A stretch of 64,000 bases of DNA from a bacterium (GTDB lineage Bacteria; Margulisbacteria; Marinamargulisbacteria; JAHFDA01), in contig JAHFDA010000007.1 in the NCBI GenBank assembly GCA_023249225.1, forward strand, positions 1,169 through 65,168. Direction: 5' to 3'. The notes under the pieces were generated by a model. The model did not search any database, was not told the DNA's origin, and saw nothing but the letters and a program-made list of their open reading frames with translations. The position numbers were made by a program, and so were the translations under genes. Below, in pieces: positions 26,745-46,615 of this stretch; positions within the stretch are counted from its first letter, which is position 1, and each line of letters opens with the position of its first letter.

Positions 26745-26801
26745 GGGCTTCAGGTCGGAAGGGTTGGGGAAATATTGCTGACAGCGATTTGCCAGCGTTT
26801 T

Positions 26802-27734: not shown

Positions 27735-27781
27735 AGATTTTTAACCCGGATTATTCACGCATATGAAGCGGACTATTACAC

Positions 27782-27824
27782 ACGGGAACCCGCTACGAGT
27801 AAAGTATGAATAGTGCGGGTTAAA
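27782..27824 (+). repeat. GT-C-flanking ~43-bp repeat, copy R1
   Basis: ACGGGAACCCGCTACGAGTAAAGTATGAATAGTGCGGGTTAAA. Nearly identical to the copy at 40737-40780, with a divergent copy at 39027-39066. It contains the inverted repeat AACCCGC...GCGGGTT and the mini-ORF ATGAATAGTGCGGGTTAA. Confidence 0.5.
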
Positions 27825-27842
27825 TTTTTTGACATGAAGCAT

Positions 27843-29516
27843 TTATTCAATTTGCTTGTAACTCATAAAAAAATCCAGTGGCTTTGACAAGCCCTGATAA
27901 ACCATCCACGGCCCTACGGTGTGACTTTGATGCCGAATCTTTTGCTGCTCCAAGGTTTTGGCAAATGCATTTTGCGCTTTGGATCCAGATTTAAGCACAT
28001 AAGCGACTTGCATGGCGGGTGCGTCCAGCATGGTTTGACAAAGACTTGAATAGTTAAGCAAACGCTTTTCACGATCAAAAGGCACACCCTTTAAGTGTCC
28101 GTGAGATAAAAATTCCAGGGTATACAGCGCAGCGTATTCCACAAACACATAGCGGGCACCACAGTCTTGCAAGTCCGAGGTCAAGTGACTCAGCTCCCAT
28201 TCGCGCGACGTTGAAAATGAGTTAAGCAGACCCTGGGCTGCAACCGTTTGATAGTTGAGTCCTGCCAGATACAAGACCAGGCCCAGGATCAGAACAAGCT
28301 TTTTATTTTGATTTAATCGGGAACAAACAAAATCGAGTCCCACATAAAGGGTGTACGGCAGTACGCTAAGCAGGGGCAACACAAAACGTATGCTGCTGAC
28401 ATCGTGTAGGTTGGGGGTAAACACGTAAACCAACAGGCACATAAAAAAATAAAGCAGCATGAGTTCGTGATCGGTAAACTTTCGACGTTCGAGCGCAACC
28501 GTAGCGCGCCATACCGGCCAGCTTTGATAAATCAGGCGTGTGGCGGCTAGCAGGACTACCCATGTATACAAGATGCCCAAGAGGGCCAAAAGGTCTGGCC
28601 ATCCAACGGCGGCAGGCAAAACAGCAATCGCCTGCACACCCAATAAAAGCGGAAGTATCTGTATGAACAAAAGGCTAAGATTTCCCAATAAACCAAGTGG
28701 CCCCACCAGGCACCAGGGCGCCGCTGGCGGAAAGTAGCCAGATGCGGGCACAAAGTATGCTAATAATTTTGGACTATATCCAATCAGAAAACTGGCACAT
28801 CCCAGTTGCCACAAGCGCTGGGTAAACACGTTGCGCAGGATGTCACGCAGTCCGTATTGCAGTATTCCCCAAGCCACAAAAAACAATACATAGACAACGG
28901 CGAGGCTATAGGTATAAAACGCCAACCCGCAAAAAAACGCTGCTGCCGCAATCCAGACTGCTTTCAACGGGGTGGGGGTATGCCTCGCTTTAAGGGCCAG
29001 ATAAATTGAAGCCGTGCCTAGCACAGTGACAGTCATGTGGCCCCCAACGGAAAACCAAGCATAATAATGTAGTGCTGGGGTGCCTATGGCCAGTAGTAAC
29101 ATGACGGCCAAACTTAGACCACGCCGACCGGTTAACAAGACCAATGTCTGATAAGCAATGATTAGAAATGCCAGGTACAACACAAAAACAGCTGACTTAT
29201 AGGCCAGCACCGTGGGTCCCAGAACTTTCATAAACAAACCACACCACAGAAGTTCAGTGCTGCCCTGGTATGGGGCGCCAGGCAATATCAGGGGTAAGGG
29301 ATCACCGCCCGACAAGGTATGTAACACCAACGTCGCGTTAAAGGCTTCATCAGCATGAAAATGGTCTAAGGCATGATGCAAGTACGGCACATGAAAAAAC
29401 GTAAATACCAGAGCCAATAGAAGTGCAGAAATCCAAGGTGAGCGTATAAGTCGATTCAATATCATGGCACGGTAACGTACAATTATAAGCCCGATGACCC
29501 AAACCAGGCTTGTCAT
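27843..29516 (-). CDS. GT-C fold membrane glycosyltransferase (ArnT/PMT-like), paralog A
   Basis: About 12 TM segments. First-loop Asp/Glu motif HADEAFN and PGAPYQGSTEL block shared with the paralog at 39063-40718 (DADEAYN, PGAPYQGITEL). The true start may be ATG 29468. Confidence 0.6.
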   Translation of the reverse strand: MTSLVWVIGLIIVRYRAMILNRLIRSPWISALLLALVFTFFHVPYLHHALDHFHADEAFNATLVLHTLSGGDPLPLILPGAPYQGSTELLWCGLFMKVLGPTVLAYKSAVFVLYLAFLIIAYQTLVLLTGRRGLSLAVMLLLAIGTPALHYYAWFSVGGHMTVTVLGTASIYLALKARHTPTPLKAVWIAAAAFFCGLAFYTYSLAVVYVLFFVAWGILQYGLRDILRNVFTQRLWQLGCASFLIGYSPKLLAYFVPASGYFPPAAPWCLVGPLGLLGNLSLLFIQILPLLLGVQAIAVLPAAVGWPDLLALLGILYTWVVLLAATRLIYQSWPVWRATVALERRKFTDHELMLLYFFMCLLVYVFTPNLHDVSSIRFVLPLLSVLPYTLYVGLDFVCSRLNQNKKLVLILGLVLYLAGLNYQTVAAQGLLNSFSTSREWELSHLTSDLQDCGARYVFVEYAALYTLEFLSHGHLKGVPFDREKRLLNYSSLCQTMLDAPAMQVAYVLKSGSKAQNAFAKTLEQQKIRHQSHTVGPWMVYQGLSKPLDFFMSYKQIE

Positions 29517-30261
29517 TTTAAGTGTTGTGCTGGCATTCGTCCTTGGGTACGCATGGGTTCATGCCAGGGTCCGTTATCCTCAAAATATTGCTCCGGCAGT
29601 TATTGACTTACAGTTTCAGGCCGCCAGCCGCAGCCAGTCTGTAGCCGATTATTTTATTTTGGGTTCGTATTATCTGGTCAACAACCAGCCCATCACCGCT
29701 ATTAAGACGTTACAGAAACTTTCGGGCACTTCCTTCGAAGAGCTTAACAGGCAACTGGAGCCTGTGCTGCTAGAAGATATCCGCCAAAACCCCAGCCAAT
29801 GGCTGCCGTATTTTCAACAAGTGCTACTGGCCCTGCTGGCACAAAAGTATGCCGACGCGCTGGTGCAAGCGCAAGCAAGCGCACCACGCTTTCAAAATAT
29901 TGAATGGTTTGAAATCGCCATCGCATTTTGCGAAGCCAAATTCAATCACATGCCGCAAGCATTTGATCACATTCAACGCGCCATGAAAATTCAGCCCCAC
30001 AATACCTTGGCCAAGGTGCTGTATACCCTGGCGTTATGGACCGATGGCCAAAAGGGCCCTGCTTTCATGGCGCTGGGCTCATTTTTATTCAGTCTGCGTT
30101 TTTCAGAAATCAGCTACATCATTCTGCAGATGGTCGATCAGGGCCTAAAAACCGCCCCGATGTATATTCAGTTAGGGGTCTTTCTGTTTTATTATTGGGT
30201 ACTGACCAAACTCTTTAACCTCAAGGGCAGCGGGTCTAGGTTGCGGAACTTGTGGGCGTAG
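29494..30261 (+). CDS. TPR-like small membrane protein, paralog of the 40789-41520 gene
   Basis: N- and C-terminal hydrophobic segments with a helical-repeat middle. Aligns with the 40789 gene (AIKTL/AIKNL; ...KVLYTLALWTDGQKGPAF / VLLAIAYWELGDKALAL). Confidence 0.45.
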   Translation: MTQTRLVILSVVLAFVLGYAWVHARVRYPQNIAPAVIDLQFQAASRSQSVADYFILGSYYLVNNQPITAIKTLQKLSGTSFEELNRQLEPVLLEDIRQNPSQWLPYFQQVLLALLAQKYADALVQAQASAPRFQNIEWFEIAIAFCEAKFNHMPQAFDHIQRAMKIQPHNTLAKVLYTLALWTDGQKGPAFMALGSFLFSLRFSEISYIILQMVDQGLKTAPMYIQLGVFLFYYWVLTKLFNLKGSGSRLRNLWA

Positions 30262-30277
30262 CCGCACGCTAACCCGG

Positions 30278-31615
30278 ATGATTCAAAAATCTTTTCAGCC
30301 TAAAAAACTCCTGGCGATCCGTACCGACCACCTGGGCGACCTGCTCCTGACGCTACCGGCCCTTAATCTTTTTAAAGAACGAACCCCCACCTGCGAATTA
30401 CACATGGTTGCGTCAGAGTCTTATGCGGCAGTGCTGCGCCATCTTTCGTGGTTAAAGCAGGTGTGGATTCCATCTGAAGTGGATGAGGCTTTTTTGAGGC
30501 AGGGTTTTGACAGCTACCTGGCGTTTTGGGAACAGGAACCGCTCAATCAAAATTCGCTGATTCAAAAGATACCCTTCCGTGCCGGGTACCGCCGCGGGTG
30601 GCAACGCAGCTATCTCAACCTGGCCTTGCCCCATCAACATATTCGCGCTTCGTATCGGCCGCAGGTGCTGCAAAACTTGGATCTGCTTGCGATGCTAGGT
30701 TTTAAAGCCACGCTGGAGGAACTTCCGCTGATCACGCTGGATCATTCAAAGGCAGGGACGGCTGGCTGGCGCATCGGAATCTGCATTGATACGGCGGGGT
30801 CAGACCGGCGCTACGCTTTGGCGCACATCAACATGTTGACGCAAGACATCTTGAAGAAGTGGCCACAGTCTACAGTGGTCTTGCTGGGCACAGGTCGATC
30901 CACTTCACAGGCTGAAGAACTGATACGTGCGATAGGGCCCTTGGCGTTGCGGGTTGAGAATCTTGTAGGTAAAACCACGGTCGAAGAACTCCTGGCATTA
31001 TGCAAGACCTTGCGCATTTTGGTGGTTGGCAATACCGGGCCGGCGCACTTGGCAGCCGCTTTGGATATTCCGCAGGTCACGCTGTTTATTGCCCAGGCGC
31101 CGTCACTGACGCGTTGGGGGCCCTGGTCGCTCAAGGCACGTATCCTTAAGCGGTCTCCGGCCTGCGATTTTGTCTGTCGTCCGCCCGAGTGTGACCAGGG
31201 GGCCCGCATTTGTGAACTAGACATTCACCCCGCGCAGGTGCTGGACGCCATTGCAGCAGTGCTGGCACAAGCCCAGCAGGTCAATTCTATGCGTGAACAG
31301 CTTACGCAATTTGCCAAACAAGGCATTGCCATTGCAAGTTCCCAGACTCAAGTGGTCGAAACCTTGCGCGCGCGTGGCTGGCAGGCGCATCTTATTCCTA
31401 AAAGCAAAGACGCTGCCGAGCGGCTGCGCTTTTTAAAAGCGCGCCAGACGCTGGTCTGTGTGGACAGCGGACCTTTGCTGCGCTGGATCGAACGCCTGCG
31501 CCTGTCGAATCATGTGGGGGTGTTGCCGTTGTATGATTCATTTAAGGGTGACTGGGATGTGCAACATTTCGAGGGCTGCCTGTACAGATACTTTGGCATG
31601 GAAGAACTGGCGTAA
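30278..31615 (+). CDS. GT9 glycosyltransferase (heptosyltransferase-like) paralog 2 with Cys4 motif and C-terminal extension
   Basis: IRTDHLGDLLLTLPALNLFKE, WGPW, CDFVCRPPECDQGARIC, then ~110 extra residues. Confidence 0.75.
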   Translation: MIQKSFQPKKLLAIRTDHLGDLLLTLPALNLFKERTPTCELHMVASESYAAVLRHLSWLKQVWIPSEVDEAFLRQGFDSYLAFWEQEPLNQNSLIQKIPFRAGYRRGWQRSYLNLALPHQHIRASYRPQVLQNLDLLAMLGFKATLEELPLITLDHSKAGTAGWRIGICIDTAGSDRRYALAHINMLTQDILKKWPQSTVVLLGTGRSTSQAEELIRAIGPLALRVENLVGKTTVEELLALCKTLRILVVGNTGPAHLAAALDIPQVTLFIAQAPSLTRWGPWSLKARILKRSPACDFVCRPPECDQGARICELDIHPAQVLDAIAAVLAQAQQVNSMREQLTQFAKQGIAIASSQTQVVETLRARGWQAHLIPKSKDAAERLRFLKARQTLVCVDSGPLLRWIERLRLSNHVGVLPLYDSFKGDWDVQHFEGCLYRYFGMEELA

Positions 31616-31659
31616 AAAATAAAGAATGGTTGGGGAACATGCATGAAAATCTGGGACTG

Positions 31660-31778
31660 CCGAAAAAGTCTCTTTTACGTCATCCCGGCGAAAGCCGGGA
31701 TCCCATCGTTGGAGTTCTTAGCCTGGGATTCCGGCTTTCGCCGGAATGACACGTCGCAGGAAACAGACGTTTTCGGCG
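31660..31778. repeat. MITE-like palindromic repeat, copy B (long form)
   Basis: Terminal inverted repeats CCGAAAAAGTCTCTTTTACG ... CGCAGGAAACAGACGTTTTCGG enclose two inverted units, GTCATCCCGGCGAAAGCCGGGATCCC and GGGATTCCGGCTTTCGCCGGAATGAC, separated by ~20 nt. Confidence 0.6.
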
Positions 31779-31851
31779 CTCCCAATCTGCCTGCAACGCG
31801 CCGACAGCCCCGGTTTCATAGGTGTGAATATTCCGGGGTAGAATACTGCCA

Positions 31852-32379
31852 ATGATCAAACGTACCGGATTGCTTCCTGCAGAAATAATTGAAAGCAAAA
31901 TTTTTTTGATTCGCAGTCAAAAAGTCATGATGGATCGGGATTTGGCGGCGCTTTATGGCGTAACAACCTTTAATTTGAACAAGGCGATTAAGCGGAATTC
32001 GAGACGTTTCCCGGATGATTTTATGTTTAAACTGACGTTCAAAGAATACCAGTCTTTAAGATTCCAAACTGGAATCTTAAAGCGGGGACAACACAGCAAA
32101 TACCTGCCGAATGTTTTCACTGAACAGGGTGTTGCCATGCTTTCCAGCGTCCTTCATAGTACGCGTGCCATTCGGGTCAATATTCAAATCATGCGTACCT
32201 TTACCAAACTTCGTAAAATGCTGGAGACGCACAAAGATCTTCGGATCCAAATTGAAGCGCTTGAACGCAAGTACGCCAAACATGACCATCAAATTCAACA
32301 GGTTTTTCATGCCATCAAACTTTTGCTGGCGGAAAAACGCGATCATAAGCCCAAAGCCATTGGATTCATTCGTGGCTGA
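31852..32379 (+). CDS. ORF6N (KilA-N-like) domain DNA-binding protein, paralog 2
   Basis: IFLIRSQKVMMDRDLAALYGVTTFNLNKAIKRNSRRFPDDFMFKL...FTEQGVAMLSSVLHSTRAIRVNIQIMRTF. It is 12 nt upstream of GT9 paralog 3, so probably co-transcribed. Confidence 0.65.
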   Translation: MIKRTGLLPAEIIESKIFLIRSQKVMMDRDLAALYGVTTFNLNKAIKRNSRRFPDDFMFKLTFKEYQSLRFQTGILKRGQHSKYLPNVFTEQGVAMLSSVLHSTRAIRVNIQIMRTFTKLRKMLETHKDLRIQIEALERKYAKHDHQIQQVFHAIKLLLAEKRDHKPKAIGFIRG

Positions 32380-32391
32380 ACTGCCGTTTTC

Positions 32392-33804
32392 ATGAAAATC
32401 TGTCTGCAACGCGCCGATAACCTGGGCGATTGCATACCTGGGATGTCGTTGATCCCGTGGGTGCGCAAGGCTTTTCGCGATGCTGAAATTCAAATCATGG
32501 TGGCCGAAAAACTGGCACCCTTGTTTACGGGCTGGGCCGAAGTGGATACGGTTATTCCAATTCCGCAGCGCGCCAATTTTGAAGACATTGATGTGGCAGC
32601 CTGCAAAGACGCGCTTAAAAAACACCGGCCAGATGTCTTTGTTTCGTTGTGGGAGAAGCATGGTTTTGTACGCGCTGCCAAAGAGGCCGGTATACCCAAA
32701 ATTGTGGCAGACATTCAGGGCGACCCGCACAACTGGCGCTATGCAACTGTGCCGGTCAAGCGGCCGTGGCACGATATCACCCGCCATCAGGTGGAGTGGA
32801 ACCTGGATCTGTTGAGGCCGATTGGTGTGGATATTCCCTTGGAACGCATCGAACTTAGTTGCCCGGTTAACGCCGAGGCCGAGCGTTACGCGGCGTCTTT
32901 TTTAGACAAGCACAAATTGCAATACTCCCGCTTTGCGGTGATCTCTTTTGGTAGCACGGGCCGGAACAAGCTGCCCGAAGCCTGGCCCCCGGCTTGCGTG
33001 GCGGCCTTTATCGACTGGCTTTATAAGGAACGTGACATGCAAGCGGTGCTGTGTGGTGCGCTGGACCAGCAACCCTATTATGCCGCCATCCGCAGTCAGT
33101 GCCAGTGTCCTCCCATCGATGCGGTCGGAAACGGTTACGTGGCCATGGCCGGGCTTATGAAATATGCGGCCTGTTACGTGGGAGGCGATACAGGTCTGGT
33201 GCAAATGGCGGCGGCATTTAAAAAACCTTGTCTGGTGCTGTATCCCACCAAGCTGGCAAACCCCATGCGTTGGGGGCCCTGGGGCACCCGGCAGCGTATC
33301 ATCTGCCGACCCTACCGGTGCGACCGGGTATGCAACACCGTGACCTGTCCAGATTGGCAATGCAGCAAGGATATATCGCTGTCTGAAGCGGTGCGGGGCT
33401 TTGAAGATTTGATGTCTGAAAATATGGTGCCTAAAGTCTCGCAACTTAAACGGTATTGGGCCAGCAAGGTGTTGCGGCCGCTTTTGCTGGGTTCGGTCGA
33501 AGAACATTTAACCCAAGCCCTGGCGCGGTCAGAAATGTTTTATGGAAAAACGGAATGGCCGCGTGGCCTGGGGCTTGAATTCTGGGCGCTGCGCCAACAG
33601 ATGATACGTGACAACCTGTGGGTGTTGCATGTTCCGCAGCCGTTGCATACGTTTAAGGCCAGGGGCTTACAGATTCTGGCAAGCAAGGGTCTGCCGCTTA
33701 AGCCGTTGCTGGTGCTGGGACATGCCGATGTCGAAGATCTGCTTGATCTCTATATCCAGGGTTTTTCCCAGCCCGAGAGGGTGCTGCATGCTCAAGCCAA
33801 TTAA
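32392..33804 (+). CDS. GT9 glycosyltransferase (heptosyltransferase-like) paralog 3 with Cys4 motif and C-terminal extension
   Basis: QRADNLGDCIPGMSLIPWVRKA, FGSTGRNKLPEAWP, WGPW, CRPYRCDRVCNTVTCPDWQC, then a ~140-aa tail. Confidence 0.7.
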   Translation: MKICLQRADNLGDCIPGMSLIPWVRKAFRDAEIQIMVAEKLAPLFTGWAEVDTVIPIPQRANFEDIDVAACKDALKKHRPDVFVSLWEKHGFVRAAKEAGIPKIVADIQGDPHNWRYATVPVKRPWHDITRHQVEWNLDLLRPIGVDIPLERIELSCPVNAEAERYAASFLDKHKLQYSRFAVISFGSTGRNKLPEAWPPACVAAFIDWLYKERDMQAVLCGALDQQPYYAAIRSQCQCPPIDAVGNGYVAMAGLMKYAACYVGGDTGLVQMAAAFKKPCLVLYPTKLANPMRWGPWGTRQRIICRPYRCDRVCNTVTCPDWQCSKDISLSEAVRGFEDLMSENMVPKVSQLKRYWASKVLRPLLLGSVEEHLTQALARSEMFYGKTEWPRGLGLEFWALRQQMIRDNLWVLHVPQPLHTFKARGLQILASKGLPLKPLLVLGHADVEDLLDLYIQGFSQPERVLHAQAN

Positions 33805-35365
33805 ACGCATTTTAATGGGCAAAGGCTTATATCAGTATGTGCCACCCCCCCGGCGGCTTTTGTGCATCCGGCCTGATGACATGGGCGATGTGGTGTGGAT
33901 GACGCCGACCCTGGCGGCCATTAAAGCGCGTTTTCCGCAGTGTCACATTACCGTATTGTGCAGCACGCAGATGGCGCCTTTGCTATTGCAACATCCCTGT
34001 GTTGACGATGTGGTCGAAGATGTATGGTGGCAGCGCACGGCCCTTTTTAGTCGGCCTTTTTGGCAGGGAGTCAATTTTTTTAAGCTCAAGCAGTGGGATG
34101 CGGTGCTGCACTTTTTATATGATCCCTTGTTTGCATGGATGGCTTTTTGTGCCGGTATCCCCTACCGGGTGGGGGATCGCAGCAAATTTTTGATGCGTTC
34201 CTTATGCAATGTGAATGTGACACAAGTGTGGGGTGATCCTGGGGCGCATGCGGTGGAATTGAATTTGCAGCTGATCAGGCCGCTGGGAATTAAAATGGAA
34301 CTGGAGAAGCTGCCCAGGTTGCATGTGCCGGTCGACACGCAGTGTGAAAAATGGTTTTCCGAACTGTTAAAGCATCAAACTCCAGAATCTGGGGGCAAGG
34401 TCATTGTGATGGCCATTGGATCGGGTGGTGGCAACAAGGCCTGGACGCCGCAAGGTTTTGCACAAGCCATTCGACTTTTGTTGCAGCGCGGAAAATACCG
34501 TGTGGTGCTGGTGGGCGGTCAGGGCGAACGTCAGGCCGCTAACAAGATCATGGCGGCGTTGGAAGACAATCGAATTGGCGCCGACTCTCCAACTCTCCGA
34601 CTCTCCGACTCGATCACAGACTTGGTTGGCAATACAACTTTGATGCAGCTCGTATCCGTGATCCGCAGCGCCGATGTTTTTGTGGGTGTTGACTCGGGTC
34701 CGTTACACATGGCCGCCGCGCTCGGACGTCCGACGCTGGCTTTGTTTCCAACCAAATACATTAAACCGCTGCGCTCGGGGCCTTGGGGCACGCGCCATTT
34801 GATTTTGCGCGAGTCACAGGTCTGTCCACTTGCGTGTTTTCCGCGCAGCTGCCCCGAGTCAATATGCCTCGATGCGATAACGCCCGATCAGGTGATGACC
34901 GGGGTGGAAAAACTGCTGTCGGGTGCCGGATACGTGCTGCCCGAAGCGCAAAGTCAGTGGTTTACGCGTTCGATGTCGCTTTTATTTATCGCGCCACCGC
35001 TGTGGTCTGATCGCTTGATCAGCGTGCTTGAAATGCTTATCGGGATGCATGTGCCGTGCGTGGTGGTGAGCGCAAACACTCACACGCTACCCAAGTTACT
35101 CACGCAGCTGCTGGTCTATCAACCCACCCGGTATCCACAGCTTTTCTTGCGCTGGCTGGTGTTGCACAATGTCACCGTGGTACATGATGTGCGCGAAGCA
35201 AGTGCCCGCAACCCTCTTTCGGCGTTTTTCCTGGCAGGAATGGCCAGAGGGGCTGCGTTTAAACTTTCGGTGCTGCCCCTTGTGATGCATGCTGCGGATA
35301 TTCCCTCTGATGCGCACACTCTGCTTAAGCAGTACCGGGCTGCTTTCGGCCGTCGGAGTTACTGA
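33788..35365 (+). CDS. GT9 glycosyltransferase (heptosyltransferase-like) paralog 4 with Cys4 motif and C-terminal extension
   Basis: ATG at 33788 (MLKPIKR...) overlaps the upstream stop by 17 nt. IRPDDMGDVVWMTPTLAAIKARFP, GSGGGNKAWTPQGF, SGPWG, CPLACFPRSCPESIC, then a ~170-aa tail. Confidence 0.7.
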   Translation: MLKPIKRILMGKGLYQYVPPPRRLLCIRPDDMGDVVWMTPTLAAIKARFPQCHITVLCSTQMAPLLLQHPCVDDVVEDVWWQRTALFSRPFWQGVNFFKLKQWDAVLHFLYDPLFAWMAFCAGIPYRVGDRSKFLMRSLCNVNVTQVWGDPGAHAVELNLQLIRPLGIKMELEKLPRLHVPVDTQCEKWFSELLKHQTPESGGKVIVMAIGSGGGNKAWTPQGFAQAIRLLLQRGKYRVVLVGGQGERQAANKIMAALEDNRIGADSPTLRLSDSITDLVGNTTLMQLVSVIRSADVFVGVDSGPLHMAAALGRPTLALFPTKYIKPLRSGPWGTRHLILRESQVCPLACFPRSCPESICLDAITPDQVMTGVEKLLSGAGYVLPEAQSQWFTRSMSLLFIAPPLWSDRLISVLEMLIGMHVPCVVVSANTHTLPKLLTQLLVYQPTRYPQLFLRWLVLHNVTVVHDVREASARNPLSAFFLAGMARGAAFKLSVLPLVMHAADIPSDAHTLLKQYRAAFGRRSY

Positions 35366-36783
35366 TGCGCGAACCCAAAAATGTGGTGATCATCCGTTCA
35401 GATGCCATCGGGGATTGGCTGGTAACAACGCCGGTGGTGGCAGCACTCAAGCAGGCTTTTCCAGCCCTGCGGCTGACAATGGTGGGCGGTTCGCTTAACT
35501 GGAAATTGATGCGTGAACATCCACTGGTCGATGATGTCATTGTCTGGCATGAGCACATGGACGTTGCTGCCAAGACCCGACAACTGGCAACTTACGGCTT
35601 TGACCTGGCGTTGATTTATCATCAAACTCTGGCGCACACGCTGGCATGCCAGCGGGCGGGCATTCCAGTCCGCATGGGCGACAGCGCACGCATCCCAAGC
35701 GGGCGTTACCTGACTGAACATACGCCCGTGATCAACGCGGATCAATCGCGCCATGTGGTTGAGGCCAACATGGGTGTGCTTGCGCCGATGGGTCTTTCAA
35801 CGCTGCGCCTGCCGATGTCGGCCGGCATCAATCCTGTGGCCAGGGAAAACATTCAGGCCAGATTGCTCTCCCAGGGATGGACGCCTCAACAGCCTTTGGT
35901 CGGTATCCACCTTAACCCCGGGGGCGCCAACCGCAGCTGGCCAGCAGAACGCATGGCGCAGACGATGAAACTGATTCATGAAAAACATACTGAATGGTTC
36001 TTTGTACTTACGGGCACCGAACTGGCTTGCGGGATGCGGGATCAGGTGTTGAGAATCAAGTCGGACTCCATTTTTGATCTTGTCGGCCAGACCAGTCTTT
36101 CTGAACTCTCTGCCCTAAGCTCACTTTACAGTTTGTTTGTCGGGGTCGACAGTGGCCCCTACCACTTGGCGGTCGCGCACGGCGTGCCCACGGTGGAAAT
36201 TGCGCCCACCAAAGCCGTGCGCCCCATCCGTTGGGGTCCGTGGCTGGTGCCAAACGTGGTACTGCGCAGCCCGATCCGTTGCGCGCTCTATTGCGATCAC
36301 CAGCGCTGTCCGGTAGATGATTGCCTTAACGCCATCACGCCCGAGAGCGTGGCCCAGGCGGCGGACAGTTTGCTCGCCGGCGGCGGCAACCGCACTTACG
36401 AAGATTCCAAAAAAGATTGGTTTAAAAAATCGCAGAGCATTGTGCTGATTGATTCGGGTCTACGTACGCAGGATGTCGAACGGGCCCGCCAGGTGCTGTC
36501 ACAGGATCCTGATATCCGCGTGGTGGTATGGCCGTTTTCAATCAAGCAAGCCTGGCGCTTGGCGGCACTGGCCCGCCGTATCCAGGCCGACGACGTCACC
36601 ACCTGGATACTCGATGATCCTTACTGGCTGCCGTATTTTAAGGCGGCGCACTTATATGCGCCGCTTAAGGTTTTTGTGCCGCCCTTACTGGTGATGTTGC
36701 CGTCTTATGTGCATGCCACATCGGGGGCCTGGGTAGACTGGTTGATGGCCGAGAACAGCAAGTTGGGGCAGACCCTGCGATGA
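35365..36783 (+). CDS. GT9 glycosyltransferase (heptosyltransferase-like) paralog 5 with Cys4 motif and C-terminal extension
   Basis: ATGA start/stop overlap with paralog 4. IRSDAIGDWLVTTPVVAALKQAFP, NPGGANRSWP, WGPW, CALYCDHQRCPVDDC, then a ~150-aa tail. Confidence 0.75.
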   Translation: MREPKNVVIIRSDAIGDWLVTTPVVAALKQAFPALRLTMVGGSLNWKLMREHPLVDDVIVWHEHMDVAAKTRQLATYGFDLALIYHQTLAHTLACQRAGIPVRMGDSARIPSGRYLTEHTPVINADQSRHVVEANMGVLAPMGLSTLRLPMSAGINPVARENIQARLLSQGWTPQQPLVGIHLNPGGANRSWPAERMAQTMKLIHEKHTEWFFVLTGTELACGMRDQVLRIKSDSIFDLVGQTSLSELSALSSLYSLFVGVDSGPYHLAVAHGVPTVEIAPTKAVRPIRWGPWLVPNVVLRSPIRCALYCDHQRCPVDDCLNAITPESVAQAADSLLAGGGNRTYEDSKKDWFKKSQSIVLIDSGLRTQDVERARQVLSQDPDIRVVVWPFSIKQAWRLAALARRIQADDVTTWILDDPYWLPYFKAAHLYAPLKVFVPPLLVMLPSYVHATSGAWVDWLMAENSKLGQTLR

Positions 36784-37658
36784 GCCAGATGGAACGCATT
36801 GGCGTTGCCCTGCGCAGTTATAACCGCATTGAAGACGCGGTGATTCAGGTGAAGTATCTTTGGAAACATTTTAAGGCTTATCCGTATTATGTGGTGGTCG
36901 TCACCAACGGAGATGCCCAGGGTCATGTGTACCCCGCCGGTCAGGGCGAAGATGCGGTGCTGCGGCTGGACAAAGGTAACCCGGGCCACTTGTGTGGTGA
37001 CAACGACATGTTTAAAGCCAGTATCGAGCATTTGCATGCGCAGGGCATTCGGTATGCGCTGTGCCTTACCAGCGACACATGGTTGCTTAACGAGCAACTG
37101 TTAAAAAAGTATCTACCACGCTTAATTGCCGGACGTCATCAGTGGATTTCGGCGCAATGGGATACGCCTCCAGAGGTCGCTTTAGACTTGATGCTGGTGG
37201 ATGTGAAATTTGTACTTGAACACCAGTTATTTTGGGCCGATTGGTCACCAGAAATTCTGATCTATCAGCGTCTCGAAGCTCTGGTAAGTCCAGAATACCC
37301 GCGTCCTTACGGAAGGATACGCGAAATTTTTCCGATCCAGTACCCGCGCCATCTGTGGCGGCCGGGCTTTGATCCGTCAGGCTCGTATCACGCGCTGGGA
37401 CGGCCGTTTTATTTTCCACGTGCGGCCGTGGTGACGCATCATGCTGAACTATTGCCAGACGGGATGACCTCCAAAAAGCGTTATGCCAACGAGTGTGTGG
37501 GACGCGAACTGTTTCCAGACGTGGGATATGAGGCCAGGCAGCTTAAGGAAATGCGTCTGCGCCGTTGGTACCGGCGCTGCTATCATGCCATTGACGATGT
37601 ATTGTTTCCGCTTTACCGGCCGTTCTACACGCATCCCCCCAGTCCCAGTCTTTCGTAA
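36780..37658 (+). CDS. hypothetical protein of unrecognised family, last gene of the GT9 operon
   Basis: 292-aa ORF with ATGA overlap to GT9 paralog 5. The N-terminal IGVALRSYNRIED is reminiscent of the first beta-strand of GT-A-type transferases, but there is no clear DxD. Confidence 0.45.
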   Translation: MSQMERIGVALRSYNRIEDAVIQVKYLWKHFKAYPYYVVVVTNGDAQGHVYPAGQGEDAVLRLDKGNPGHLCGDNDMFKASIEHLHAQGIRYALCLTSDTWLLNEQLLKKYLPRLIAGRHQWISAQWDTPPEVALDLMLVDVKFVLEHQLFWADWSPEILIYQRLEALVSPEYPRPYGRIREIFPIQYPRHLWRPGFDPSGSYHALGRPFYFPRAAVVTHHAELLPDGMTSKKRYANECVGRELFPDVGYEARQLKEMRLRRWYRRCYHAIDDVLFPLYRPFYTHPPSPSLS

Positions 37659-38980
37659 GCCCAGGTTTCAAAAGCGGGTATCTCCAAATCGGCCAGATGC
37701 ACATACACCGGCGGATTCCATGCGGTCAGGTTAGAGGTTTTCATCTTTAAAGGGTAGATCCACGGATGTCGCCAGGGCTGCTTGAGTACCAGGACGTTTA
37801 TCTTGTGAGAAACAAGTATCTGTTCTGCAAATTTCATATTGAATGGGCACAGGCTATGTGCCTGGTAGCCCGCATCTTGCAAGTGCCGGGTGGCCTGTGG
37901 ATCGTCGCATAGAATTTCTAGAGAAGCTTTCAGTAGGTGGCTCCGCAGTTGTGTCGCTGTCCAGTACGTAGGCTTGTCGAGTTGTTGCTGGCACAGAGCA
38001 AATAACTTTTCTGCAGAAATATGCGGCTGACAGGTGCTTACGGCCAGAGCACAATTCCATGGCGTGCAGGCCATGGCGCAGTGCGGAGTTTCTTTGTACG
38101 CCAACGCGTGTACATCCCAAGGCGCCCAGCGGCAGGGATTGATGTTCTGGGTGACAAGCACACATATTTGCGGGATACCGCACGCGGCGGCCAGGTGTGC
38201 GGTGCCAGTGCTGGGGCCAAGTAGCAGGCGTGCATGGGCGATCCACGCTGCCAGTTCGCTCACCGAGGTTTGGCCGGTGGCGTCCAGCACGCGTATTTTC
38301 AGGGGTTCCGGAATTTCTGCCAGAATTTTTTGGGCGGTATGGCTGGCTTTGGATGTGCCCATCAATCCAACCGCGGCACGGGGATAGGTTAAAAGCAAAT
38401 GCCTGGCCAAAGTAGCCAAGGTGCTAAAACTCACAGCCAACGCGCTTTGCGCTTCGAGCGCCAGTAAAATCCACTCGGTTTGACCGGAATGATTTTGAAA
38501 CTGACTGACAGATTCAGGCAACTTGAATGTCGAGGGATTGAAGTGGTAATGAATTCCTGCCGATGCGGGTGTCATGGAAAGTTTATTGACAAGGTCCAGG
38601 TTCTGAAAGACCTGTGGTCTAAATGAGGACACGCGGTGCGAACGCCAAAGTCCGCGGTTGAACAGGCGCAAGTCTTTGGGCGAACGCTTCCAGCCGCTCC
38701 GTAGCGGGATCCCAACCTCGAGCGCTAAGCGGGCATGGGGATCTTCTTCCCAAAAAAATACGGCAGCGTCAAAGGCAGCCTGACGCAATCGTTCTACAGT
38801 CATATCTTTGGGAGACCAGATTTCATCTACCCAGGTCATGGCTGGATGCAAGTGCTCAAGTCCTGGCGCGGCCACTAGGGTGAGGTGTGCGCCGCCAGAC
38901 TTAAGCTGCCAAAGTGCAGGAAGGGTTAGAATCAGATCTCCTAAATGATCGGGACGGGACAATAATACTTTGCGTAACAT
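37625..38980 (-). CDS. GT9 glycosyltransferase (heptosyltransferase-like) paralog 6 with Cys4 motif and C-terminal extension
   Basis: SRPDHLGDLILTLPALWQLKS, W.PW, CAMACTPWNCALAVSTC, then ~110 extra residues. Confidence 0.7.
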   Translation of the reverse strand: MLRKVLLSRPDHLGDLILTLPALWQLKSGGAHLTLVAAPGLEHLHPAMTWVDEIWSPKDMTVERLRQAAFDAAVFFWEEDPHARLALEVGIPLRSGWKRSPKDLRLFNRGLWRSHRVSSFRPQVFQNLDLVNKLSMTPASAGIHYHFNPSTFKLPESVSQFQNHSGQTEWILLALEAQSALAVSFSTLATLARHLLLTYPRAAVGLMGTSKASHTAQKILAEIPEPLKIRVLDATGQTSVSELAAWIAHARLLLGPSTGTAHLAAACGIPQICVLVTQNINPCRWAPWDVHALAYKETPHCAMACTPWNCALAVSTCQPHISAEKLFALCQQQLDKPTYWTATQLRSHLLKASLEILCDDPQATRHLQDAGYQAHSLCPFNMKFAEQILVSHKINVLVLKQPWRHPWIYPLKMKTSNLTAWNPPVYVHLADLEIPAFETWAYERLGLGGCV

Positions 38981-39026
38981 GGTGCGGTTAACCCAGATGA
39001 TGCATACTTAGAAGTCGATCATGGCA

Positions 39027-39066
39027 CACGGGAACCTGATACTACTATATGAATAGTGCGGGCTAA
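39027..39066 (+). repeat. GT-C-flanking repeat, copy R2 (diverged)
   Basis: ACGGGAACCTGATACTACTATATGAATAGTGCGGGCTAA. Shares ACGGGAACC and ATGAATAGTGCGGG(T/C)TAA with R1/R3. It overlaps the stop codon of GT-C paralog B. Confidence 0.45.
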
Positions 39067-40718
39067 TAAAAAGGCCTTAAATCAAAAAAGGTGTTTTCTT
39101 TGTTCATGCCGTAGACCACGGTATAGGTTGGGTTTGCATAGCATTGATACGCGATGTCATGTTTTTGTGAAAAACGTTTCCAGGTATGCAGGTGGGCTGA
39201 ACCCGTAAAAAATATATACGGTCGTTCAGCTACAGGTTTACGCATCAAGGATCGATAGATAAAAATTTCATAGCTGGAGTCACGGGCGTAAGTCATCACC
39301 GGAATAGACTGGTGTTGTCTGCCCGAAAGATAGGTGAGCTTGTGACTGATCCAGTATTCAGAAAAGCTAAGGGCCAGCGCATGGTTGTCTAAAAAACCGA
39401 TCAGGTCTTGCATGTCGCTTTCAGCGGCATTGGGCGTCTGGCGATACAAACCTTGTTGCAGGGCGTAAACATGATAGTGGCATCCAATATAGGCCAGCGT
39501 GAAAACCAGAAACACCACAAGTGCTTTGCGTCCGCCACGCTGTTCAATCCATTCAAGAAACCGGCACCACAAAAAAGGGATAAAACCAAGCACCGGTATT
39601 AAAAAACGTACGTGCACGAAGTCATGCAATTGCCTGGACAAAATGGCCACGCCAAAGATCCATAGTAATCCAAGTATCATGATGGATTCTTCAGACAGCA
39701 GGCGTTTTTGCAGACTTAAATAGGCTTTGATCTCACCAAGATTGCGATGGATCACAAAAATGATAAAGCCAAACAGTATGGCCAGGTACAGATGGCCGGC
39801 GATTTTTAAGCTGGTGGGTAAGGTAAAAGACGCCACATGGGTCAGGTTTTGAATGCCACGGTAAAAGGGGAGCGACTCCGCTGGAATCCATTTAACGCCT
39901 GCATAGTAAGGCAGTATTTCTGTCACACAGAGTTTGAGCGATTGAAAGATGCTGGCGGGATCCGCCAAACCCATGACAGGACCACCCACATCGACCCGAA
40001 AAATTTTTGCCAGTATGCCTGGAGCGTAACCAAGCCCAAAACCCCCTAACGCAAGGTATCCGTTTTTTGTAGAGCCTATTTTTTTAATCAGTCCGCGTAC
40101 TCCGTTTTCAATGATGCCGATGGTTAAAAATAGTCCCAGGTAATAAATAGCCAGGGTATAGGTGTAGTAGGCAAAACCCATAAAAAATCCGGCAAACCAT
40201 AGCCAGGTTCTGGACGAGCTGCTGTTTTTTTTCCGGTATTTAAAAAAGCAAAACAAAGCCAGGGTTCCCAGGGCGGTGATGGTGGTATGTCCGCCTACCG
40301 CAAAAAAAGCAAAGTGTTTTGTGATCCAAATATTAAACGCCAGGGGCAGCGTTCCCCAAAAGGCGTACGTGACACCTATGCCCAAGAGGCGCAGTAACTT
40401 AAACGAAGTGCCCACCAGCACAAGGTAGGCTAAAAAAATACTAAACTTATAAGCGCCCGGACCGGCCCCCAGGATCAGTTGTGCCGGAATGGTGCCGGCC
40501 AGCTCGGTGATGCCCTGGTAGGGGGCCCCCGGTATGTTTAAAGGGCGATAATGTTCATGGATCATACGCTGGGATACGATGGCGTTATAGGCCTCATCGG
40601 CATCCAAATAACTGGCGGCATGCATCAAAAAGGGGATCTGGGTGAGCACCGTGATCAAAATGAGCGCAAAAAATGCCAACGGCTCACCAGATAAAATGAG
40701 TTTTTTAACTGGCACCAT
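39063..40718 (-). CDS. GT-C fold membrane glycosyltransferase (ArnT/PMT-like), paralog B
   Basis: Polytopic with a DADEAYN first-loop motif. Paralogous to 27843-29516, and flanked on both sides by copies of the ~43-bp repeat. Confidence 0.6.
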   Translation of the reverse strand: MVPVKKLILSGEPLAFFALILITVLTQIPFLMHAASYLDADEAYNAIVSQRMIHEHYRPLNIPGAPYQGITELAGTIPAQLILGAGPGAYKFSIFLAYLVLVGTSFKLLRLLGIGVTYAFWGTLPLAFNIWITKHFAFFAVGGHTTITALGTLALFCFFKYRKKNSSSSRTWLWFAGFFMGFAYYTYTLAIYYLGLFLTIGIIENGVRGLIKKIGSTKNGYLALGGFGLGYAPGILAKIFRVDVGGPVMGLADPASIFQSLKLCVTEILPYYAGVKWIPAESLPFYRGIQNLTHVASFTLPTSLKIAGHLYLAILFGFIIFVIHRNLGEIKAYLSLQKRLLSEESIMILGLLWIFGVAILSRQLHDFVHVRFLIPVLGFIPFLWCRFLEWIEQRGGRKALVVFLVFTLAYIGCHYHVYALQQGLYRQTPNAAESDMQDLIGFLDNHALALSFSEYWISHKLTYLSGRQHQSIPVMTYARDSSYEIFIYRSLMRKPVAERPYIFFTGSAHLHTWKRFSQKHDIAYQCYANPTYTVVYGMNKENTFFDLRPFY

Positions 40719-40736
40719 TCATCAGTACAACTTTGA

Positions 40737-40780
40737 ACGGGAGCCCGCGACAAGTAAAGTATGAATAGTGCGGGTTAAAA
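40737..40780 (+). repeat. GT-C-flanking repeat, copy R3
   Basis: ACGGGAGCCCGCGACAAGTAAAGTATGAATAGTGCGGGTTAAAA, 3 mismatches to R1. It fills the 70-bp divergent gap between GT-C paralog B and the 40789 gene. A TTGAAC-N16-TAAAGT promoter-like arrangement overlaps it. Confidence 0.5.
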
Positions 40781-40788
40781 CGCGGAAC

Positions 40789-41520
40789 ATGCTCGGCTTC
40801 ATTTTGGGTCTGGTGCTTTTAGCACTGGGCCGCAATGATGTGCGCTACCTTTTTAAATCGGCTTCGGTGCTTGCTTGCAACGAAATATTTTCGACACCCG
40901 GCAGTGCCGCAGCCCAGTTCGAAAAAAGTGCCAATCTCCTTTACTGTGGTCGCCTCATTGAAGCCATCCATGCCATAAAAAATTTGCCGCCCCCGTACCA
41001 GATTCGCGATGAGCTTGAGGCAGAATTTAATAACCAAATCAATATCCATACGGCCCGTTGGCAGCCAGGCGTGAATCTGGTTTTGGTGCACCTTTTTAAT
41101 AATGAATACGACGATGCGCTTGCAAGGAGCAACGCCAATTTACGTTCTTTTCCGGATCAGGCCTGGTGCAAACTGCTACATGCCTTTGTTTTAGCTAAAA
41201 AGGGGCAGATGCACGCAGCCGTTGGTATGGGGCATGAGGCCGATGCGATGCTGCCAGACCATCCTTTGCCGCCTGTGCTGCTTGCGATTGCCTACTGGGA
41301 ACTGGGGGATAAAGCATTGGCCTTGCGTACCCTTGGCGTGGCGCTATTGCGGCTGCGCCTTTTAGAAATAATGTGGGTGCTCAATGAAATCGTTCGAGGC
41401 CTGTTTAACAATCTTTCAGTGTTTGGCATGGTATTGGCTGGGGGAGTTTATTTTTGGATATTCCGCCGCATGGCGGGTATTCGGCAGAGTCTGCTGGGCG
41501 ATATCCGACGCTTGATTTAG
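40789..41520 (+). CDS. TPR-like small membrane protein, paralog of the 29494-30261 gene
   Basis: ATG 40789 gives MLGFILGLVLLALG as a signal/TM segment. Helical-repeat middle and C-terminal TM (GVYFWIFRRMAGI). Confidence 0.45.
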   Translation: MLGFILGLVLLALGRNDVRYLFKSASVLACNEIFSTPGSAAAQFEKSANLLYCGRLIEAIHAIKNLPPPYQIRDELEAEFNNQINIHTARWQPGVNLVLVHLFNNEYDDALARSNANLRSFPDQAWCKLLHAFVLAKKGQMHAAVGMGHEADAMLPDHPLPPVLLAIAYWELGDKALALRTLGVALLRLRLLEIMWVLNEIVRGLFNNLSVFGMVLAGGVYFWIFRRMAGIRQSLLGDIRRLI

Positions 41521-41600
41521 CCCGCAGTTAAATTCCACATGATTTTGGGTGAAATATCGAAAATATTAAATCGATACATAATATAAGCGGCTCCTATCTT

Positions 41601-42104
41601 ATGAAGGCTATTTTATATAAGCGCGTTGCCGAATCCACCGACCCCTTCGAACGTGCGGCCAAGCGTTGGGGCGTCCGCAAGGACGGTATCCGTCATGACA
41701 CCAGGTCTTCTGATCGCAGACAGGATCTCCGGCCTTTTGACCCGCCACCCACTGTAGAGGATCTGGGCGAGCCCACGGTGGAAAAATTAATCCATTGCCG
41801 AAATCGAGAAGGTTATTTGAAAGCAGATTTGAAAAAGTATTCCAACGTACTCAAATACAATTTTGGAATGCTTGTATTCATTGGGGTAAGCCTGGGGCTT
41901 TCGATGAGTCAACAGTGGGATCCCCTATGGCCTACCCTGGCAATCCTGCTGGTCGCCGATTTTGCGGTCGAAGGCTGGGCCTTTACCAAGTACGCCCGGA
42001 CGGATCAAGCGATTTCAAAAAACCGCGCAGTGATGCTTGGCCTCGAGCTGGCCCTCTATAACCGGGGCATTCCTTTTTCGCCCGAAGACGACACGGCATT
42101 CTAA
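41601..42104 (+). CDS. hypothetical membrane protein
   Basis: 167 aa with charged N-terminal half and two hydrophobic helices. No equivalent in the first copy of the duplicated module. Confidence 0.35.
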   Translation: MKAILYKRVAESTDPFERAAKRWGVRKDGIRHDTRSSDRRQDLRPFDPPPTVEDLGEPTVEKLIHCRNREGYLKADLKKYSNVLKYNFGMLVFIGVSLGLSMSQQWDPLWPTLAILLVADFAVEGWAFTKYARTDQAISKNRAVMLGLELALYNRGIPFSPEDDTAF

Positions 42105-42143
42105 ACAACGCCGTAAGCACAGAAAGTCGTAAAATAATGGAAT

Positions 42144-43544
42144 ATGTCATGGTCTGATTCCATTCGCCGCATCCTGGTCATTCGCCCAGACCAGATTGGC
42201 GACTTGTTGCTGATTACGCCAGTGCTACGGGCCTTAAAAAAAAAATGTCCCGGCGTAGAAATCACGGCCTGCATCAAGCCTTACACCGCGCCCATTGCCT
42301 GCCGTATTCCTGAAATTGATGTCATCTTTACAGATCGCCTGCTACCAGGCCAATATACCTGGTCTGATTTTTGGCAGGTAGCAAACGAGATTCGCGCCCG
42401 TCAGTTTGACCTGGCCATTCATTTCACCACCGATTATCCCTACACACTCATATCTTTTTTGGCAGGTATTCGCTACCGGGTAGGAGATTATGCCCGCCTG
42501 GGGATGCGACCCTGGCTCAACATGCCTGTGCGTCAGCATTACCGTGATACCAGCAAGCACGAGATTGAACACAACTATGATCTTTGTAACATTTTTGACA
42601 GCGGACTTTCTGAAGAGCCGATGTCGCTGCGGGTCAGTGCCGAAGAAGTGCAAAAATTTCGGATGACCCATCAGCTTCCAGCGGGACCACTGCTTGCGGT
42701 GCATCTTGGGACGGGTGGCGGAAATAAGCCTTGGTTGCCTGAATCTTATGCGATGGTTTGTGACCAGATACTCCAAAAGTTTCAGATGCCATCCCTGGTC
42801 ATCGGGTCGCCTGCGGAACAATCTCTCGCGCAGCGGTTTATGGCCTCTGCAAAAGGGCGGCACCATGTCATGGTGGGTAAAACCGATCTTTCAGATTTGC
42901 CGTTGGCCATTGCCTGCGGTGATTATTTTTTGGGCGTCGATTCGGGACCCATGCATATTGCTGCTGCGCTACAAAAGCCCACCGTGGCTATTTTTCCAAC
43001 CAAAATGGTCAAGGCGGCACACTGGGGTCCCTGGCATGTGCCGCAAGAAATTGTGCATATGCAAACCGCTTGCGAGCTGCGTTGTGTGCCCCGCCAATGT
43101 GCTTTGGAGACCTGCTTAAAAGAACATCCGGTCGATGCGGTTTTTCAGGCTGTGTCACGGCTGATCGAAGGGCATTGTTCCAAAAATGCTTGGGATCAAA
43201 AGCTGCAACGCATCCGTAAAACACTGGGCATTGGTTTTATACACAAGGGCCATGGCCTTTTGCCGACGATGCAAACACAGATGCATCAGGTAAAAGCAGA
43301 AGGCTTCCAAGTCCGATTATTGCAGCTTGGCCCCTGGCAGGTCAGCGAACTGGCCGCTGCTTTAAATGCTTTTAACCTGCATGTATTGGTGGTGCCTTCG
43401 CACGTACAGCTCTGGCGCGTGGCAGCGGCCCTCACAGGCTCCAAAGTATTTATTCCACCCCTGGTGATCACGCCCGATGCTTTGGAAGCTGCCGAGGGGA
43501 ACGTGGCGCAACGCCTGGTGCAATGTTTTAACCCGTGCGAGTAA
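42144..43544 (+). CDS. GT9 glycosyltransferase (heptosyltransferase-like) paralog 7 with Cys4 motif and C-terminal extension
   Basis: IRPDQIGDLLLITPVLRALKKKCP, LGTGGGNKPWLPESY, WGPW, CELRCVPRQCALETC, then ~130 extra residues. Confidence 0.75.
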   Translation: MSWSDSIRRILVIRPDQIGDLLLITPVLRALKKKCPGVEITACIKPYTAPIACRIPEIDVIFTDRLLPGQYTWSDFWQVANEIRARQFDLAIHFTTDYPYTLISFLAGIRYRVGDYARLGMRPWLNMPVRQHYRDTSKHEIEHNYDLCNIFDSGLSEEPMSLRVSAEEVQKFRMTHQLPAGPLLAVHLGTGGGNKPWLPESYAMVCDQILQKFQMPSLVIGSPAEQSLAQRFMASAKGRHHVMVGKTDLSDLPLAIACGDYFLGVDSGPMHIAAALQKPTVAIFPTKMVKAAHWGPWHVPQEIVHMQTACELRCVPRQCALETCLKEHPVDAVFQAVSRLIEGHCSKNAWDQKLQRIRKTLGIGFIHKGHGLLPTMQTQMHQVKAEGFQVRLLQLGPWQVSELAAALNAFNLHVLVVPSHVQLWRVAAALTGSKVFIPPLVITPDALEAAEGNVAQRLVQCFNPCE

Positions 43545-46608: not shown

Positions 46609-46615
46609 ATCTTTT

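Follow-up and report, generated by a model that had tools for sequence, protein, structure and literature searches.

Across all domains of life, GT-C enzymes glycosylate substrates in the periplasm or the lumen. The role of the tetratricopeptide repeat (TPR) domains that are fused to some of them (TMTC, TfpW and many bacterial PMT_2 proteins) is still unclear. In TfpW of Pseudomonas aeruginosa a periplasmic TPR domain is fused to a GT-C enzyme that modifies pilin, and in TMTC an extracytoplasmic TPR domain is fused to a GT-C enzyme that modifies cadherins (PMC7801869). Here we describe two divergent gene pairs, A and B, each encoding a GT-C-like protein of ~545 amino acids (aa) and a small TPR membrane protein of ~250 aa, in a 64-kb stretch of contig JAHFDA010000007.1 (positions 1,169 to 65,168) from a Marinamargulisbacteria genome, hereafter the window. 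With moderate confidence, we regard each pair as a split, two-part GT-C glycosyltransferase that modifies an envelope glycoconjugate, the TPR protein being its cognate accessory.

The animal TMTC1-4 proteins, TfpW and the bacterial PMT_2 proteins with TPR domains resemble these pairs in combining a multi-span GT-C protein, an acidic motif in its first loop and a TPR module that is thought to recognise acceptors or partners. In contrast to the fused enzymes, the TPR module of the window is a separate, doubly anchored and divergently encoded protein, and the GT-C protein ends in an alpha/beta domain, not in a TPR domain. The window proteins also differ from ArnT/PMT_2-type GT-C enzymes (PF13231; GT83/GT39-like) in falling below all Pfam, NCBIfam and PDB sequence thresholds. 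The two pairs are composed as follows.

27843 to 29465, minus strand: putative GT-C-fold glycosyltransferase, paralogue A, 540 aa; the start is ATG 29465 and not 29516, from gene calls and alignment.
29466 to 29493, no strand: divergent spacer A, 28 bp, with overlapping -10-like hexamers.
29494 to 30261, plus strand: small TPR membrane protein, paralogue A, 255 aa; 27% identity to paralogue B (E=4e-15).
39063 to 40718, minus strand: putative GT-C-fold glycosyltransferase, paralogue B, 551 aa.
40789 to 41520, plus strand: small TPR membrane protein, paralogue B, 243 aa, or 250 aa if the start is GTG 40768.

The open reading frames (ORFs) described in the first-pass annotation of this DNA were found at the positions that it reported, and the window contains exactly two copies of the GT-C-like family and two of the small-protein family. 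The paralogy proposed there for the large proteins was clear (28% identity over 535 aa, E=3e-54), with the motifs HADEAFN in A and DADEAYN in B, and PGAPYQG(S/I)TEL common to both. Hydropathy analysis showed ~10-11 strong hydrophobic segments and a basic N-tail in each paralogue. An AlphaFold2 (AF2) model contains ~11 long helices followed by the C-terminal alpha/beta domain, and a structural similarity to solved GT-C enzymes was observed; the GT-C fold assigned to these proteins in the first-pass annotation is supported. The acidic motif is located right after the first transmembrane (TM) helix, in the first extracytoplasmic loop (D41 and E42 in B); D41 is invariant in 53 relatives, and the Glu and further loop residues are conserved.

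Neither GT-C paralogue matched a Pfam or NCBIfam family at E<=0.1 or a PDB sequence, and both were below the gathering threshold of Pfam PMT_2. A profile of 53 aligned sequences did not match any solved structure either, so that a direct assignment to a Pfam, NCBIfam or PDB family was rejected for single sequences and profile alike. PMT_2 (PF13231) is matched by 27 of the 53 aligned remote relatives and not by the window paralogues, hence the homology to PMT_2 is only transitive. As part of the reading proposed here, and at the same moderate level of confidence, the ~545-aa proteins are taken to be very divergent PMT_2/ArnT-like enzymes whose first periplasmic loop carries a D-E motif. The absence of a match to any curated family model would also fit a non-catalytic GT-C-fold protein (PIG-U/GAB1-like), or a polymerase or ligase using diphosphate-linked oligosaccharide donors. 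We consider this very improbable, since the invariant Asp, the conserved Glu after TM1 and the loop residues conserved across the 53 relatives indicate that the active site has been kept, and since short GT2 genes resembling monophosphate-sugar synthases adjoin the family in relatives.

The family is rare. A word-indexed search of 5.8 billion clusters with paralogue B recovered, apart from the query, a single protein (37% identity), and the same kind of search with the 53-sequence profile gave few useful matches. An exhaustive HMMER scan of 1.84 billion representatives yielded 1190 proteins at E<=1e-3, just 33 of them at E<=1e-30, and only a handful of proteins, out of billions, belong to the narrow clade that carries PGAPYQGxTE. 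Relatives of the pair were not found in GTDB species genomes or in Joint Genome Institute (JGI) metagenomes. The window proteins that were checked, housekeeping proteins included, are singletons at 90% identity among 15 billion sequences. The GT-C-like proteins form a very rare subfamily recognised by no current curated model; GT-C enzymes, TPR adaptors and periplasmic glycan modification as such are known.

The small proteins are also paralogous, as had been proposed (27% identity over 205 aa, 63.5 bits, E=4e-15, well under the E-value limit of 1e-3 that the first-pass annotation had set for this similarity). The shared motif AI(H/T)AIK(N/T)L given for them is exact in B (AIHAIKNL); A reads PITAIKTL, which reduces the common core to I(H/T)AIK(N/T)L, and this core was not found in the small homologue of a related locus, L004 (see below). 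Both are membrane-anchored TPR proteins, with the tandem helix-turn-helix repeats of a TPR solenoid. A short basic tail opens each protein and leads into a strong N-terminal TM helix. After the TPR region comes a helix of weak hydrophobicity (Kyte-Doolittle hydropathy, KD, 1.3-2.0), in which an acidic residue is conserved, and then a C-terminal TM helix ending in a strongly basic tail (+2 to +3). By the positive-inside rule, the basic N- and C-tails favour an N-in/C-in orientation, which makes it likely that the TPR domain is periplasmic.

A different arrangement would follow if the weakly hydrophobic segment (KD 1.3-2.0) also spanned the membrane, since a protein with three TM helices could have its TPR region and basic C-tail in the cytoplasm. 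The small protein would then be a cytoplasm-facing membrane scaffold, with a logic like that of LapB/YciM, which heads a rightward operon and organises soluble glycosyltransferases such as GT9 enzymes, and its adjacency to the GT-C gene would only reflect an operon boundary. The basic tails at both ends speak against this topology, as they favour a TPR region outside. The middle hydrophobic segment has charged residues that are conserved, and the model divides it between two helices. Gene order bears on this scaffold explanation as well, and on the whole it is unlikely, for reasons completed below with the GT9 genes.

In relatives the adjacency of GT-C and small-protein genes is kept while the flanking genes change, which favours a functional partnership, as the first-pass annotation had anticipated. 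The divergent pair was verified by sequence four times in three organisms, with spacers of 19, 28, 70 and 99 bp. On contig ERZ27296333 (18,748 bp), the protein P0005 is the orthologue of small protein A (76% identity), and its gene is divergent, at 99 bp, from that of a 540-aa protein without a Pfam match. On the same contig P0002, which is 37% identical to GT-C B, is encoded divergently, at 2 bp, from a 254-aa protein without a Pfam match. In L004, which comes from the unrelated sample SRR6483213, a 244-aa homologue of small protein B (E=9.5e-20) is encoded 19 bp from a B-like GT-C gene with about 40% identity to B that is split by a frameshift. The small-protein gene is followed by a GT9 gene in the window, by a gene for a 690-aa PMT_2-TPR protein in the case of P0005 and by a short GT2 gene in L004; as this neighbour differs each time, the conserved unit is the pair of GT-C and TPR genes. 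The pairing is conserved within this narrow clade.

The partner types co-vary: P0005 matches small protein A at 76%, and in L004 the small protein is closest to small protein B and the GT-C protein to GT-C B. Paralogue divergence is equal in both genes of the pair (28% for GT-C, 27% for the small protein), and such values, compared with the 76% of the small protein A orthologue in a related organism, support the view already taken in the first-pass annotation that the duplication is old. Contig ERZ27296333 encodes four proteins of ~540-566 aa without a Pfam match, two of them with divergent small partners, suggesting an expansion of the GT-C family to at least four paralogues in that organism; the sequence check covered P0002 and P0005.

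The first-pass annotation had placed both pairs in a three-gene module, each with a GT9 gene downstream of the small protein. The genes that bear on this arrangement are listed here.

30278 to 31615, plus strand: GT9 (heptosyltransferase-like) of an 'A-type' clade, 445 aa with a C-terminal extension; Pfam Glyco_transf_9, E=5e-17; best PDB match WaaF (1PSW).
37625 to 38980, minus strand: GT9, paralogue of 30278-31615, directly downstream of GT-C B; Pfam Glyco_transf_9.
41601 to 42104, plus strand: orphan ORF, 167 aa, between small protein B and the next GT9 gene; called as a gene in independent assemblies.
42144 to 43544, plus strand: GT9 of another clade, placed in module B by the first-pass annotation; best paralogue 33788-35365.
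All GT9 genes of the window: 17731-19161 (minus strand), 30278-31615, 32392-33804, 33788-35365, 35365-36783, 37625-38980 (minus strand) and 42144-43544.

Both flanking genes named in that proposal (30278-31615 and 42144-43544) do encode GT9 proteins, and six of the seven GT9 paralogues of the window lie within 30.2-43.6 kb. They are not counterparts of each other. In a neighbour-joining (NJ) tree of the seven window proteins and one from a relative, the sister of 30278-31615 is the minus-strand gene 37625-38980 (bootstrap 100%; BLASTP 30% identity over 452 aa, E=2e-50). The GT9 at 42144-43544 groups with those starting at 33788, 35365 and 17731, and its best paralogue is 33788-35365 (33% identity, E=4e-59, versus 1e-25 to 30278-31615). 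The clean three-gene duplication was rejected on the basis of this tree. Since all three paralogue pairs are 27-30% identical, the triplet may well have been duplicated nonetheless, and in that case module B may correspond to 37625-41520, with a rearranged gene order in which the GT9 gene switched sides. The GT9 gene is not a fixed third member of the module, as PMT_2-TPR or short GT2 genes take the place downstream of the small protein in relatives. The orphan ORF 41601-42104 has no paralogue in the window, no Pfam or NCBIfam match and no counterpart in module A.

The window GT9 proteins are closest to lipopolysaccharide (LPS) heptosyltransferase II (WaaF, 1PSW) and to 3TOV, and not to protein heptosyltransferases; a TibC-like protein heptosyltransferase function was rejected because their best PDB matches are WaaF and WaaC. 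All seven paralogues (445-525 aa) share CxxxC...C...C, a motif rich in Cys that immediately follows the GT-B domain. A C-terminal extension of ~110-130 aa is present in all of them and absent from WaaC/WaaF, which are about 320-350 aa long, and from the 372-aa GT9 of L004.

For the scaffold explanation introduced above, these genes supply arguments in both directions. In the window both TPR genes lead rightward gene strings that contain GT9 genes, an A-type GT9 gene was co-duplicated with each pair, and the GT9 C-terminal extension could be a docking site. Nevertheless, the gene downstream of the TPR gene varies (GT9, PMT_2-TPR, short GT2 or a small ORF) and the constant neighbour is the GT-C gene, and the co-duplicated GT9 gene of module B sits in the GT-C operon and not in the TPR operon. 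We therefore keep the TPR protein as a probable partner of the GT-C protein.

Bacterial promoters that fire in both directions from overlapping elements have been described under a model of bidirectional -10 symmetry, with overlapping opposite-strand -10 elements and divergent transcription start sites (TSSs) 7-29 bp apart (Warman et al., bioRxiv 10.1101/2020.01.31.928960). The short spacers of the pairs invite comparison with them. The overlap of start codons described for module A in the first-pass annotation disappears, since gene calls and the alignment of homologues place the GT-C start at ATG 29465, leaving 28 bp to ATG 29494. The gap of 70 bp in module B was confirmed and becomes 49 bp if GTG 40768 is used. 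Of the overlapping divergent promoters proposed for these spacers, opposite-strand -10-like hexamers do fit in spacer A, and a scan for the consensus sigma-70 -35/-10 arrangement found no full promoter in either spacer. A scan for intrinsic terminators in both spacers was also negative.

Spacer A reads CAT-GGCACGGTAACGTACAATTATAAGCCCG-ATG. It contains a perfect bottom-strand TATAAT (29487-29482), 16 nt before the GT-C A ATG, and a top-strand TACAAT (29478-29483), 10 nt before the ATG of small protein A. TATAAT occurs just 15 times in the window, both strands considered. The L004 spacer, CAT-AGGCGTATAATAACCGCCA-ATG, has TATAAT 8 nt before the GT-C ATG and TATTAT 6 nt before the ATG of the small protein. 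The two hexamers base-pair at their positions 2 and 6, which matches the described 18-bp bidirectional configuration exactly. Both spacers share with the described promoters the overlap of opposite-strand -10 hexamers in a tiny divergent spacer. They differ in that the hexamers of spacer A overlap by just 2 bp, with predicted TSSs ~15 bp apart, and in that the spacer of module B is taken up by a palindromic repeat. On sequence grounds, spacer A is a putative bidirectional promoter.

Of 36 gene starts across the window, 13 are preceded by the -10-like hexamer TAnnnT at a distance of 5-11 nt (background 6.8%, p=3e-7), for example those at 25852 (minus strand), 31852 (plus), 42144 (plus), 60668 (plus) and 15685 (minus), and only 11 have a Shine-Dalgarno-like motif. 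These patterns suggest that leaderless or short-leader mRNAs could be widespread in this organism, and if common they would explain how such short spacers serve both genes.

The repeat in the module B spacer belongs to a family of ~85-nt imperfect palindromes, of which nhmmer found three copies in the window and no more. The copies share one orientation, and each of them abuts one of the two GT-C genes.

27739 to 27826, plus strand: palindromic repeat copy 1 (E=2.9e-25), 17 nt past the GT-C A stop codon, between convergent genes.
40703 to 40781, plus strand: palindromic repeat copy 2 (E=8.5e-21), filling the 70-bp divergent spacer of module B.
38988 to 39070, plus strand: palindromic repeat copy 3 (E=5.2e-20), with a degenerate left arm, overlapping the GT-C B stop codon.

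The arms are TTTAACCCGGATTATTCA and TGAATAGTGCGGGTTAAA; the latter 18-mer has five matches at <=3 mismatches versus 0.03 expected. Its matches lie at 27740-57 and 27807-24 in copy 1, at 40704-21 and 40762-79 in copy 2 and at 39050-39067 in copy 3, which ends 8 nt before the start of GT9 37625-38980. In copy 2 the left arm holds the GT-C B ATG and first codons, and the right arm the alternative start GTG 40768. The presence of this copy explains why module B has the wider spacer of the two window pairs. Copies 1 and 2 form long hairpins (z=-4.5 and z=-4.2, the latter on the minus strand), with UUUUUU after that of copy 1 on the plus strand; the fold of copy 3 is not significant (z=-0.3).

Copies 1 and 2 are near-identical over ~45 nt although their flanking genes are 28% identical, so that the element is either much younger than the gene duplication or constrained. 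It matched no Rfam family, was absent from L004 and had no exact counterpart in JGI metagenomes. Possible roles are those of a terminator or insulator, of an operator, of a miniature inverted-repeat transposable element or of a recombination site. An integron attC site was unsupported: the R' end reads GTTAAAA versus GTTRRRY, the fit is poorer still in copies 2 and 3, and the window showed no integrase.

Both divergent pairs are contained in an envelope-glycan region that spans roughly 13.7-47 kb of the window, with seven GT9, three GT4 and two GT2 genes (one of the latter fused to TPR repeats), a 2-oxoglutarate oxygenase and conserved unknowns. LptC (46036-46608) and LptA (46517-47143) are encoded at its right edge. 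Directly upstream of them, the 500-aa product of 44506-46008 combines a GT2 domain with a TM helix and a TPR domain at its C-terminus. The same region contains a canonical fusion of PMT_2 with a C-terminal TPR domain (13712-15685, minus strand, 657 aa), of TMTC-like architecture, which has an orthologue in L004 (53% identity).

A polyprenyl-phosphate-linked sugar donor is predicted for the GT-C proteins. In L004, a 248-aa GT2 gene lies directly 3' of the small gene; its best NCBIfam matches are AglJ, PpgS, a Dol-P-hexose transferase and ArnC, which are polyprenyl-phosphate-sugar synthases, all below the cut-offs. On contig ERZ27296333 a 249-aa GT2 gene lies directly 3' of the 540-aa GT-C gene, and in another locus (L006) a GT2 gene is divergent to a distant GT-C relative. 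To our knowledge, a TPR partner is part of no described three-component periplasmic glycosylation system. Such systems, which join a lipid-linked donor to a GT-C enzyme, include GtrA/GtrB/GtrC, ArnC/ArnEF/ArnT and the GT136 pentofuranose systems (PMC11127046), and the window resembles them in having GT-C genes inside an LPS or polysaccharide locus. Further likenesses are the short GT2 gene adjoining the pair in two relatives, that of L004 resembling polyprenyl-phosphate-sugar synthases, and, as in seroconversion systems, the presence together of several paralogous GT-C enzymes that presumably differ in specificity. Unlike in these systems, no flippase candidate was seen near the pairs, and the window gave no synthase orthologue.

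The GT-C subunit would move a sugar from such a donor onto an envelope glycoconjugate at the periplasmic face. As acceptor we would expect LPS core, or a polysaccharide that the neighbouring GT9, GT4 and GT2 enzymes assemble, sooner than an envelope protein. The small protein, anchored by its N- and C-terminal helices, would supply acceptor recognition or scaffolding, and both genes may be co-expressed from a very short shared bidirectional promoter as largely leaderless or short-leader mRNAs. An ancient duplication of the pair and of one GT9 gene would then have produced two cognate sets with different specificities.

The nature of the acceptor is the point at which a second explanation enters, namely that each pair O-glycosylates proteins, as a bacterial analogue of TMTC/PMT or TfpW split into two subunits, of which the TPR subunit selects protein acceptors instead of LPS or polysaccharide. 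Peptides are the usual ligands of TPR domains, the best-understood GT-C-TPR enzymes modify proteins (pilin by TfpW, cadherins by TMTC), and PMT_2-TPR fusions are encoded at 13712-15685 and beside the A-type pair in a relative. The surroundings, however, are those of glycan assembly, with seven WaaF-like GT9, GT4 and GT2 genes near lptC and lptA, and distant members of the family occur in ABC-transporter-type polysaccharide loci. No candidate acceptor protein gene adjoins the pairs, and a profile-profile comparison with the PMT_2-TPR protein of the window revealed no similarity in its GT-C or its TPR part. A protein acceptor thus seems improbable to us, and a glycan acceptor is retained for the two-part GT-C glycosyltransferase proposed here.

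Several observations weigh against this two-part enzyme. The two AF2 models, built from 3-sequence alignments, reach just moderate confidence (pLDDT 59 and 64), and the loop with the catalytic motif is poorly modelled. Distant GT-C relatives have no TPR neighbour; their genes occur with GT2 and GT4 genes plus an ABC-2 exporter, or beside a divergent GT2 gene, which means that a TPR partner is no inherent feature of the enzyme family. In the fifth pair, that of P0002, the 254-aa neighbour is only a candidate TPR partner. The third, weakly hydrophobic helix of the small proteins would permit a cytoplasmic TPR domain, and neither spacer holds the full sigma-70 promoter that was scanned for. Lastly, no recognisable polyprenyl-phosphate-sugar synthase orthologous to the L004 GT2 was found in the window, and no GtrA, SMR or MATE flippase match to Pfam among the ORFs scanned between 23.6 and 48.8 kb, for the most part those of at least 150 aa.

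If the two-part enzyme is real, this natural split version would be a genetic handle on what the TPR domain contributes, since cognate and non-cognate pairs could be swapped. The divergent spacers of 19-28 bp with overlapping -10 boxes are, in addition, clean candidates for a minimal bidirectional promoter serving two protein-coding genes. A broader proposal, which we put forward as speculative and rather doubtful, is that the pairs represent a lineage-restricted class of two-subunit GT-C enzymes, so far unannotated, with a separate, doubly anchored periplasmic TPR module for acceptor specificity and a minimal symmetric bidirectional, leaderless promoter, in a cassette that multiplies together with a cognate GT9 gene and with ~85-nt palindromes bordering the GT-C genes and so diversifies the envelope glycan. 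With an uncultured lineage and a very rare family, practical impact is limited.

Other observations concern the neighbouring genes. The products of 26775-27734 (319 aa) and 36780-37658 (292 aa) have no Pfam or NCBIfam match; their counterparts in the L004 glycan cluster (2-721 and 1767-2585) share 59% and 40% identity with them, and they are uncharacterised components of the envelope-glycan locus of this lineage. Outside the glycan region, 5047-6000 encodes a homologue of the VCA0040-like (DUF368) undecaprenyl-phosphate translocase. Two ORF6N-domain genes in direct orientation (26079-26744 and 31852-32379; 58% aa and ~70% nt identity) flank a 5.6-kb segment that comprises the gene at 26775, repeat copy 1, GT-C A, small protein A and the A-type GT9 30278-31615. 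The second ORF6N gene is itself flanked by a 26-nt direct repeat (88%; 31784-31809 and 32397-32422), the downstream copy of which constitutes codons 2-10 of GT9 32392-33804, so that the gene looks inserted at the 5' end of this GT9. Just downstream of GT9 30278-31615 there is a strong inverted repeat (31679-31750) with 27-nt arms, 93% complementary, and an 18-nt loop; each arm holds a CCGGCGAAAGCCGG hairpin, and the structure may be a terminator or another repeat element.

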